Shown here: positions 28,900 through 29,706 of the stretch, piece by piece
Position numbering within the stretch: the stretch's first letter is position 1
How the letters are laid out: each line of letters begins with the position of its first letter
Sequence record: HM208303
From: Escherichia phage vB_EcoP_24B
Length of the DNA stretch: 57,677 nucleotides
Direction: 5' to 3' (one strand)
The notes under the pieces: model-generated
The model's input: the letters and a program-made list of their open reading frames with translations, nothing else
Told to the model about the DNA's origin: nothing
Databases searched by the model: none
Program-made: the position numbers and the translations under genes

Positions 28900-29706
28900 A
28901 TGGCAAAGCTGGACTGGAAAAAGCTGGAGCAGGCATTCCGACGCGAACATGCCGAAACGGGAATAACATTACTGGACTGGTGCCGGAAGAAAAAGATTAA
29001 TTACAACACCGCCAGAACCCGTATAAAAATGGGCAAAATCGATCATGAAATTGATCATAAAACCGATCATGAAATCGATCATGACATCTCAGATGAAGAA
29101 CCCTGCAATGACGCGGGTTCCGGCGATGAAAAATGTGCAAAAAACTCTGAAAAAAACTGCGCAAATTCGGCAGAAACGAAACGGATTCGTGGTTCCCGAC
29201 TTTTACCACCTTCAAACGCTTTTTCTCAGCGAAACACCCACGCCGTAAGACACCGTGGATATGCGAAGTATCTTGAGGCAGATAACCTCATGGATGATGC
29301 GTCCGACATGGTGCTGTTCGATGAACTGGTGTTCACCCGGGCCCGCGCACTTTCAGTAACTAAGGCACTTAAAGGGATGTTCGCCGACCTGGAAGAGGCA
29401 ACTGACGTGGAAACCCGTGTTGCTCTTTACGACAAAATACTCAAAGCTGAACAGGCCCTTGACCGGAATATTGCCCGTATCGAGTCAATTGAACGCTCAT
29501 TGCTGACGCTGGACGTCCTGGCTGAGACAGCACCAAAACTTCGTGCTGACCGGGAAAGAATCAACGCCGCCAGAGATAAACTCAGAGCTGAAACCGATAT
29601 TCTGACCAACCAGCGTCGGGGCGTTGTTACGCCTGTCAGTGACATCGTGTCATCGCTGCATGAAATGAGTAATTCGGGGAGACTGGATGACATTCCGGAA
29701 GAATGA
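28900..29706 (+). CDS. Putative terminase small subunit
   Basis: 268 aa immediately upstream of and overlapping the large terminase; contains the DHEID repeat encoded by clustered GATC sites. Confidence 0.55.
   Translation: MAKLDWKKLEQAFRREHAETGITLLDWCRKKKINYNTARTRIKMGKIDHEIDHKTDHEIDHDISDEEPCNDAGSGDEKCAKNSEKNCANSAETKRIRGSRLLPPSNAFSQRNTHAVRHRGYAKYLEADNLMDDASDMVLFDELVFTRARALSVTKALKGMFADLEEATDVETRVALYDKILKAEQALDRNIARIESIERSLLTLDVLAETAPKLRADRERINAARDKLRAETDILTNQRRGVVTPVSDIVSSLHEMSNSGRLDDIPEE
29041..29088. repeat. 12-bp periodic repeat, four GATC sites at 29041, 29053, 29065 and 29077
   Basis: GATCATGAAATT / GATCATAAAACC / GATCATGAAATC / GATCATGACATC read directly. Confidence 0.9.

Follow-up and report, generated by a model that had tools for sequence, protein, structure and literature searches.

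In several phages the sequence recognised for packaging is embedded in the gene for the small terminase that recognises it, as in gene 3 of P22 and also in Sf6 and SPP1. In phage lambda, several short repeated words, the R-sites of cosB, are bound by the winged helix-turn-helix (HTH) N-terminal domain of the oligomeric small terminase gpNu1, as was reportedly described by Shinder and Gold in 1988. The R-sites lie outside and upstream of Nu1, in a cos system that has a defined nick site and includes an IHF site. P22 has as its pac one asymmetric sequence, about 22 bp long, and not an array of short direct repeats; this sequence can be altered at wobble positions with the protein unchanged (PMC11260489), and no methylation control has been described for pac sites of this type. 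In phage P1, pac spans 161 bp of pacA and holds seven repeats of the hexamer TGATCA/G, which carry Dam sites, in one cluster of four and another of three. Between the clusters lie an IHF site and the cut sites, and packaging falls about 9-fold when the repeats are mutated synonymously (PMC10028697). Dependence on methylation has been shown for P1 only. Here we describe an array of four GATC sites inside the small-terminase gene, terS, of Escherichia phage vB_EcoP_24B (sequence record HM208303), a stretch of 57,677 nucleotides referred to below as the window. On balance, and with moderate confidence, we favour the view from sequence comparison that its four GATCA units are recognition words of the phage's pac site, at which bound TerS would initiate headful packaging.

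The four GATC sites are at 29041, 29053, 29065 and 29077. The claim of the first-pass annotation, that four such sites lie at an exact spacing of 12 bp inside the small-terminase gene, is borne out both by these coordinates and by the identity of the open reading frame (ORF) that holds them. The array reads ATC GAT CAT GAA, ATT GAT CAT AAA, ACC GAT CAT GAA and ATC GAT CAT GAC, and encodes the peptide IDHE-IDHK-TDHE-IDHD at codons 47-62 of the 268-residue ORF 28900-29706. Its plus-strand hexamers CGATCA, TGATCA, CGATCA and CGATCA are TGATCG, TGATCA, TGATCG and TGATCG on the minus strand. Tandem Repeats Finder, run on the window, reported a repeat at 29036-29088 with a period of 12, 4.4 copies and 82% matches. 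This is the window's sole cluster with at least three GATC sites inside 60 bp, and when the window's 150 sites were placed uniformly, four of them fell within 40 bp in 2.1% of placements. The exact periodicity is present because a 12-bp tandem repeat underlies the array. The window contains about 20 tandem arrays, and the chance of a GATC in a 12-bp unit is about 3%; periodicity alone is therefore weak evidence of function, and the case for function must rest on comparison with other sequences.

GATC is depleted in the window as a whole (150 sites against 231 ± 13 expected from dinucleotide-preserving shuffles), despite the presence of a phage gene for a Dam-family methylase. An ORF of 72 residues on the minus strand (28997-29215; ...HDRFHDRFYDQFHDRF...) overlaps the array and very likely does no more than mirror the repeat, as a spurious ORF. 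A search of Rfam at permissive E-values over 28400-29800 gave no match, which leaves a reading of the array as an RNA element unsupported.

The segment 28600-29800 is 100% identical to the corresponding DNA of 933W, VT2-Sakai (Sp5) and many further Stx2a-converting phages, and the 933W annotation describes the product, L0112, as 'putative small subunit terminase'. The gene is placed directly 5′ of terL, with the portal gene following, which is the gene order of a small terminase; according to the 933W annotation it sits in the late operon, after stx2AB and the lysis genes. An AlphaFold2 model of TerS, built on 33 homologs, comprised an N-terminal three-helix bundle (helices 6-20, 24-30 and 35-41; predicted local distance difference test, pLDDT, 74-86), a disordered segment at residues 45-119 (pLDDT below 50) and a C-terminal coiled-coil hairpin (helices 127-166 and 170-238; pLDDT above 90). 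This model, together with the match to PHROG 370, gives the small-terminase architecture of an N-terminal DNA-binding domain and a helical oligomerisation core. The array codes for the very start of the flexible linker, just past the presumed DNA-binding domain, which ends at about codon 41-46. A Foldseek comparison of the model with the PDB returned generic coiled-coil matches only (E at least 0.39), a profile search of PDB sequences with TerS gave nothing relevant, and Pfam and NCBIfam held no model matching this TerS or TerL.

Judged by sequence comparison, the N-terminal domain of TerS has a homolog in the domain with which P1 PacA binds DNA. BLASTP aligned the two N-termini with an E-value of 0.009 (..NYNTARTRI.. 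in TerS against ..NPNTARRYL.. in PacA), each protein matched the PHROG family of the other (3e-5 and 2e-4), and a comparison of the two family profiles by hhalign gave a probability of 96.3% and an E-value of 1.7e-9 over 45 columns, covering TerS residues 4-46. The remaining 220 or so residues of TerS showed no similarity to PacA in BLASTP. The 933W-type protein differs from PacA in being unrelated to it beyond some 45-100 N-terminal residues. The large subunits are also of different kinds: TerL and PacB gave no significant BLASTP alignment (best E 3.7) and share only the very broad PHROG 2. The small terminases of headful phages with pac inside terS, such as P22, belong to families other than that of the 933W-type TerS.

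The array corresponds to the left hexamer cluster of P1 in several respects. In both phages it lies inside the gene of the recognition subunit, just 3′ of the segment for the homologous N-terminal domain: at codons 47-62 in the 933W type, and in P1 at pacA codons 65-77, with GATC spacing of 7, 12 and 15; the right cluster of P1 is at codons 108-126. The 933W-type words, (C/T)GATCA, read TGATC(G/A) on the other strand and fit the P1 hexamer TGATCA/G. Both the array and the left cluster have four words, spaced by 12 bp in the 933W type and by 11-15 bp in P1, and these are coded mainly as Asp-His or Asp-Gln, with xI residues as well in P1. The P1 clusters encode M-I-I-D-H-S-N-D-Q-H-A-G-D-H (left) and N-D-R-S-D-D-H-D-V-I (right). 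Both phages carry a Dam-type methylase of their own. GATC clusters persist among relatives of PacA with identities as low as about 30%, where they are written as D-H or D-Q together with xxG-ATC.

A protein search returned 379 TerS homologs, from Escherichia, Shigella, Salmonella, Citrobacter, Serratia, Yersinia, Dickeya, Pectobacterium, Brenneria, Xenorhabdus and Aeromonas. Their lengths differ in steps of four residues. The DNA comparison covered 110 loci with 84 unique terS genes, and in every lineage one short word was arrayed just 3′ of the HTH-coding segment. Most lineages have TGCGCA(A/G) as this word, Pectobacterium and Brenneria have (A/G)TTCGCA, and the 933W-type genes and one Salmonella lineage have GATCA. 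TGCGCA is read as xxT-GCG-CAA (A-Q), GTG-CGC-AAA (V-R-K) or AAA-TGC-GCA-AAA (K-C-A-K), and words of the TTCGCA type as AAT-TCG-CAA, ATT-CGC-AAA or AAT-CGC-AAA. The peptides at the array position in these other lineages are unrelated (SAQK, VRK, CAK, NSQIRS) while the DNA word is kept. Each 222-bp linker segment holds 5-7 copies of TGCGCA (or 5 of TTCGCA) against 0.0-0.19 expected from the flanks, and the shortest gene, that of locus L029, holds three. When the sister arrays were recoded synonymously (5000 trials per gene), the observed count was never reached in 14 of 16 representatives, and was reached once and five times in the other two. Counts beyond those given by synonymous recoding indicate that the TGCGCA and TTCGCA arrays have been selected as DNA. 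Sister arrays were located in loci L003-L112 at terS positions of about 130-310, for example in L012 (3175-3230), L081, L003 and L009. Among the papers that could be searched, no publication describing these family-wide word arrays was found.

The sister arrays resemble the 933W array in gene position, in the flanks of the unit (AAA-n-T/Y ... r-A-A), in a similar copy number and in the architecture of the protein. They differ in having a central CG where the 933W array has AT, hence no Dam site, in their irregular spacing of 7-24 bp, in the use of two or three reading frames and in the motif of the recognition helix. The irregular spacing and the several frames suggest that the sister arrays are older. 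By position and analogy, they are probably lineage-specific pac words recognised by TerS. It is probable that the window's array represents, in a lambdoid Shiga toxin (Stx) podovirus, a word array of the P1 kind with a single cluster in terS, and one state of a family-wide system of lineage-specific words.

The GATCA unit can be aligned with the family word. Its logo is AAA-n-Y-GATCA-h-r-A-A against aaa-n-T-GCGCA-r-a-a for the TGCGCA unit, and AAA is present at -5 to -3 in 17 of 17 GATCA units. TGATCA is TGCGCA with the central CG replaced by AT, as in AGT GAT CAA AAA compared with AGT GCG CAA AAA. The Salmonella GATC lineage, whose protein is about 60% identical, has three or five units, at gene positions 142, 154, 166, 178 and 190; the window array occupies the first four of these coordinates (142, 154, 166 and 178). 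In this lineage His alternates with Gln (GAT-CAA) and the neighbouring residues vary (S/N/I/T; K/E), but GATCA is invariant. Residues around the words vary in the same way in the PacA family, where GATCA is likewise kept.

Two observations concern related loci. One GATCA word (ATT GAT GAT CAA AAA) stands among TGCGCA words at gene position of about 190 in L074, and also in L072, L073 and L084 (protein P0008), in an Escherichia coli/Shigella lineage; this hybrid array may be an intermediate in the word switch. In locus L113, a Salmonella prophage with five GATCA units, a gene for a pertussis-toxin-S1-like (Scabin-like) ADP-ribosyltransferase is found at 6047-6862, between the antiterminator and lysis genes, where it occupies the place of stx in 933W.

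Word type tracked the motif of helix 3 without exception in the 86 genes tabulated, which were the 84 unique genes from the fetched loci and two Salmonella GATC genes. ARR[YH][IL]K is found with TGCGCA, AKRYITIK with TTCGCA and ART[RQ]IK with GATCA. The terS gene of 933W is a mosaic: it is 87% identical to E. coli genes of the TGCGCA type over its first 90 nucleotides and 92-95% identical over its last 450, against 56-60% over nucleotides 91-138. In that segment it is nearest to the Salmonella GATC type, at 77%, with the synonymous codons TAC AAC ACC GCC in common. The Salmonella GATC gene, for its part, is 98% identical over its first 90 nucleotides to a gene of the TGCGCA type. From these comparisons of sequence, helix 3 travels with the array as one cassette across two gene backbones, as expected of a unit of protein and site specificity.

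Within the 933W type, the array is almost invariant inside a highly variable linker. In 21 unique full-length genes, one of its 51 sites was variable, and this change was synonymous and outside GATCA, whereas 44 of 159 sites varied in the rest of the linker, 33 of them nonsynonymously. The HTH segment had 5 variable sites in 135 and the C-terminal part 38 in 459. The first-pass annotation had proposed a comparison of repeat number across related phages, and this gave mostly four units (39 IMG/VR loci, with one more locus having five), three or five in the Salmonella lineage, and 1-7 in the protein clusters considered below. P0002, the representative of a cluster of 558 member sequences of 933W-type TerS, has Ile for Thr in the presumed recognition helix (NTARIRIK) and keeps the four D-H units.

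Words of the TGCGCA family are also seen around the GATC array (Table 1). In enterobacterial lineages a distal TGCGCA word is kept about 70-90 bp 3′ of the main array. The window has its distal non-GATC words (29134 and 29158) 56-80 bp downstream of the array; another relative reads TGCGCC at the position corresponding to 29134-29139. The distal words seem to be decaying in the GATC lineage, and in the Salmonella GATC lineage they are decayed.

We propose that TerS, which combines an HTH-like domain, a long flexible linker and a coiled-coil oligomerisation domain, acts as an oligomer of which several HTH domains bind the four direct repeats in the DNA of the linker start. Bound TerS would position TerL, a first cut would be made nearby, and headful packaging would start from it. 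The word TGATCA was probably derived from TGCGCA and gained with an altered recognition helix (..TARRYIK.. to ..NTART[R/Q]IK..); the change from CG to AT would have made Dam sites at exactly the base pairs in which the two word types differ. This would place N6-methyladenine where the protein has to read the major groove, and methylation should therefore matter for binding or cleavage. The methylation state, set by host Dam and early phage Dam, would probably modulate one or the other, as in P1, and an early phage Dam could fully methylate the fast-replicating DNA before the late terminase appears.

The window does contain a gene for a Dam-like methylase at the place given by the first-pass annotation, as its matches to PF05869 and TIGR01712 confirm; the latter scored 265.9 bits against a cutoff of 97. 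The 933W counterpart, L0094, is placed between ninB and roi/ninG/Q. Specificity for GATC is suggested by membership of the family. The further suggestion that packaging is coupled to the phage's own Dam was weakened, as no Dam homolog was found within 10 kb upstream of terS in the Salmonella prophages with GATC arrays. The phage Dam is therefore not an obligatory partner of the array, and host Dam alone would suffice to methylate its sites. In a phage of the TGCGCA type, PhiR12_3, no Dam homolog was found within 16 kb of terS. By analogy with P1, methylation control of the array is plausible.

Several results weigh against a pac function. The part of the first-pass proposal that pointed to a P1-like pac gained from the homologous N-terminal domain, the equivalent place of the hexamers, their D-H/D-Q coding and the word arrays of sister lineages, but not from the two remaining features of the P1 site. 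The 933W type has one GATC cluster where the P1 pac is bipartite: the nearest GATC sites upstream and downstream of the array are 228 bp (28813) and about 900 bp (29986) away, so that there is no second cluster near it. No match to the IHF consensus WATCARNNNNTTR was found on either strand of 28900-29400, in a consensus scan that may miss weak sites. All GATCA words of the 933W type are in one frame (GAT-CAx), unlike those of P1, which use two. Protein clusters show 1, 2, 4, 5 and 7 units, the extremes being singletons from short draft contigs. The association of helix and array may be mere linkage, arising from as few as two evolutionary events, because helix 3 and the array are only about 20 bp apart. 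The role of the sister TGCGCA arrays as pac is itself suggested by position and analogy. Finally, synonymous recoding reproduced the GATC count in 11-28% of trials, and selection at the DNA level is not demonstrated for this array. When the validated pac of P1 was recoded in the same way the result was also non-significant (P 0.12); the test is therefore powerless for GAT-CAx words and uninformative in either direction.

Reports on the packaging of 933W-type phages bear on the same question. A terminase-typing scheme treats the 933W terminase type as headful (PMC6029569). On the other side, 933W is called a cos phage in one paper, which cites a general review only (PMC7566468), and PhageTerm gave a 'Mu-like' result for a 933W-like phage (PMC7946995). 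The cos label was traced to that review and carries no data, and the paper that uses it also reports efficient plasmid packaging, which is otherwise unexplained (PMC7566468). The 'Mu-like' call was set aside as probably reflecting the method. The published modes (cos, headful and 'Mu-like') thus conflict, none having mapped ends among the papers that could be read, and a search of the accessible literature for a paper mapping the virion ends or pac of 933W-type phages found none, which also counts against the pac proposal. The lambda cos 12-mer was absent from the window, with up to two mismatches allowed. Two further candidates were rejected. The start of the phage-DNA record of Sato et al., about 340 bp past 29800, was considered as a genome end, but these records are circular and their origin, inside terL, is arbitrary. 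The LF82 prophage Gally has a coverage-mapped pac in termS (PMC9928086), but its TerS has 140 residues and belongs to another family, and it was not taken as a model.

Four other explanations were weighed against recognition of the GATCA units by TerS. The array could be an incidental by-product of slippage in a low-complexity stretch of a spacer linker, with GATC present because Asp-His happens to be written GAT-CAT. Such an origin would fit the exact in-frame 12-bp repeat with its copy-number variants, the pLDDT below 50 in this region, the non-significant recoding test and the number of tandem arrays in the window, given which a GATC-holding 12-bp unit is not very unlikely. We nevertheless regard it as unlikely: no part of the gene varies less than the array, which sits in the most variable region, a lineage of only about 60% identity has it at the same gene coordinates, its unit flanks match the family word, and the sister arrays at this spot are under clear selection at the DNA level. 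Selection on the (I/T)DH(E/K) peptide, with the DNA irrelevant, is improbable on different grounds. His/Asp-rich repeats can bind metals, so that a metal-binding role is possible, as is one in docking, and the single frame and strict conservation of D-H in the 933W-type genes would agree with either. In the Salmonella lineage, however, H/Q alternation and varying neighbours leave only GATCA invariant, the PacA family behaves likewise, and lineages with unrelated peptides at this position still keep a DNA word.

The true packaging signal of 933W might instead lie elsewhere, in the residual TGCGCA words at 29134 and 29158, in another pac or in a cos site, with the GATC array replacing former words and either neutral or in decay. 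Downstream there are indeed one intact TGCGCA word and another that is nearly so, cos packaging has been asserted in one paper, and sites of the P1 type need two clusters where a single GATC cluster is present. We consider this distinctly unlikely, since sister lineages have 5-7 TGCGCA words where only one or two are left here, and the proximal word has been destroyed (TGGGCA). Among 933W-type genes the distal words are, moreover, polymorphic, in the Salmonella GATC lineage they are decayed, the recognition helix has changed along with the array, and neither a lambda cos in the window nor data behind the cos claim were found. A role of the GATC sites unrelated to terminase can also be imagined, such as sequestration by SeqA, an entry point for mismatch repair, or control over late transcription or over the timing of replication. 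Closely spaced GATC sites are a classical SeqA target, as at oriC and P1 oriR, and in a genome poor in GATC the array is the only cluster of this kind. An effect of host Dam on 933W lysogeny is mentioned in PMC3342100, with reference to Murphy et al. 2008. Such a role appears very improbable as the whole explanation, for it accounts neither for the sister arrays without GATC at the same position nor for the link to the TerS helix; it is also compatible with recognition by TerS, and in P1 forms part of the pac model.

Table 1. Coordinates in the window of the GATC array, related words and associated genes
Feature	Position	Strand	Basis or remark
Four GATCA words, a candidate pac array for recognition by TerS	29036..29088	+	Consensus AAA-n-Y-GATCA-h-r-A-A
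TGGGCA, decayed family word TGCGCA	29030..29035	+	Sister lineages have TGCGCA here (gene position ~131, codons K-L-R-K); codons 31-46 compared
TGTGCA(AAA), mutated distal family word	29134..29139	+	Most 933W-type relatives have TGCGCAAAA
CTGCGCAAAT, intact distal TGCGCA word (29158)	29157..29166	+	Window's only TGCGCAAA
Segment coding for HTH-like DNA-binding domain, codons 4-46	28909..29037	+	hhalign to PacA family
Presumed recognition helix, codons 35-41 (..YNTARTRIK..)	29002-29022	+	Helix motif covaries with DNA word
terS, small terminase, 268 aa	28900..29706	+	PHROG 370 'terminase small subunit', E 4.8e-125; 933W L0112
terL, large terminase, 568 aa, overlaps end of terS	29687..31393	+	PHROG 2 and 24361 'terminase large subunit'; 933W L0113
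Portal, P22-type	31393..33537	+	Pfam PF16510, E 1.4e-128
Dam-family N6-adenine methyltransferase, nin (early) region upstream of Q	17559..18086	+	PF05869, E 6e-65 (6.4e-65); TIGR01712 equivalog, E 1e-79

Some Salmonella homologs (P0067-P0073 and P0100) keep the C-terminal two-thirds of TerS with a wholly different N-terminal domain (MNQSEEESLKRDYCAGV... or MDMEALKSDYCAGV...), a pattern that suggests, at the level of the protein sequences, whole-domain swaps of the DNA-recognition module. Other tandem repeats in the window include a perfect 9-bp unit in 7.1 copies at 2391-2454 (GCTGCACTG), a 24-bp unit in 2.9 copies at 12839-12902 and a 45-bp unit in two copies at 39659-39749. The last is rich in GGn and CCn codons and possibly encodes collagen-like Gly-X-Y in a tail protein.

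If the array has the function proposed, a lambdoid podovirus would be tied to the P1 pacase by a common DNA-binding domain and by binding sites written into a disordered linker. The lineage-specific specificity types TGCGCA, TTCGCA and TGATCA should then govern cross-packaging, lateral or generalised transduction and hijacking by satellites among the many prophages of enterohaemorrhagic E. coli, and Dam could act on virion production in addition to its known effect on 933W lysogeny. The 48-bp candidate makes the question of cos or headful packaging in 933W-type phages directly testable, and word arrays that are independent of reading frame offer a general computational route to pac sites. More tentatively, and as a possibility that may well fail, packaging specificity in the TerS family, and more distantly in P1 PacA, would be a swappable cassette consisting of the recognition helix and the word array within the next 100 bp, and a single swap from TGCGCA to TGATCA would have put the initiation of packaging in phages of the 933W/Sp5 type under Dam control. 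The toxin gene that these phages carry, stx2a, is the one with the strongest association with haemolytic uraemic syndrome. If the cassette and Dam control are real, virion production and the spread of the toxin gene would depend on the Dam activity of host and phage, and differing word types would keep co-resident lambdoid prophages of O157 from cross-packaging.

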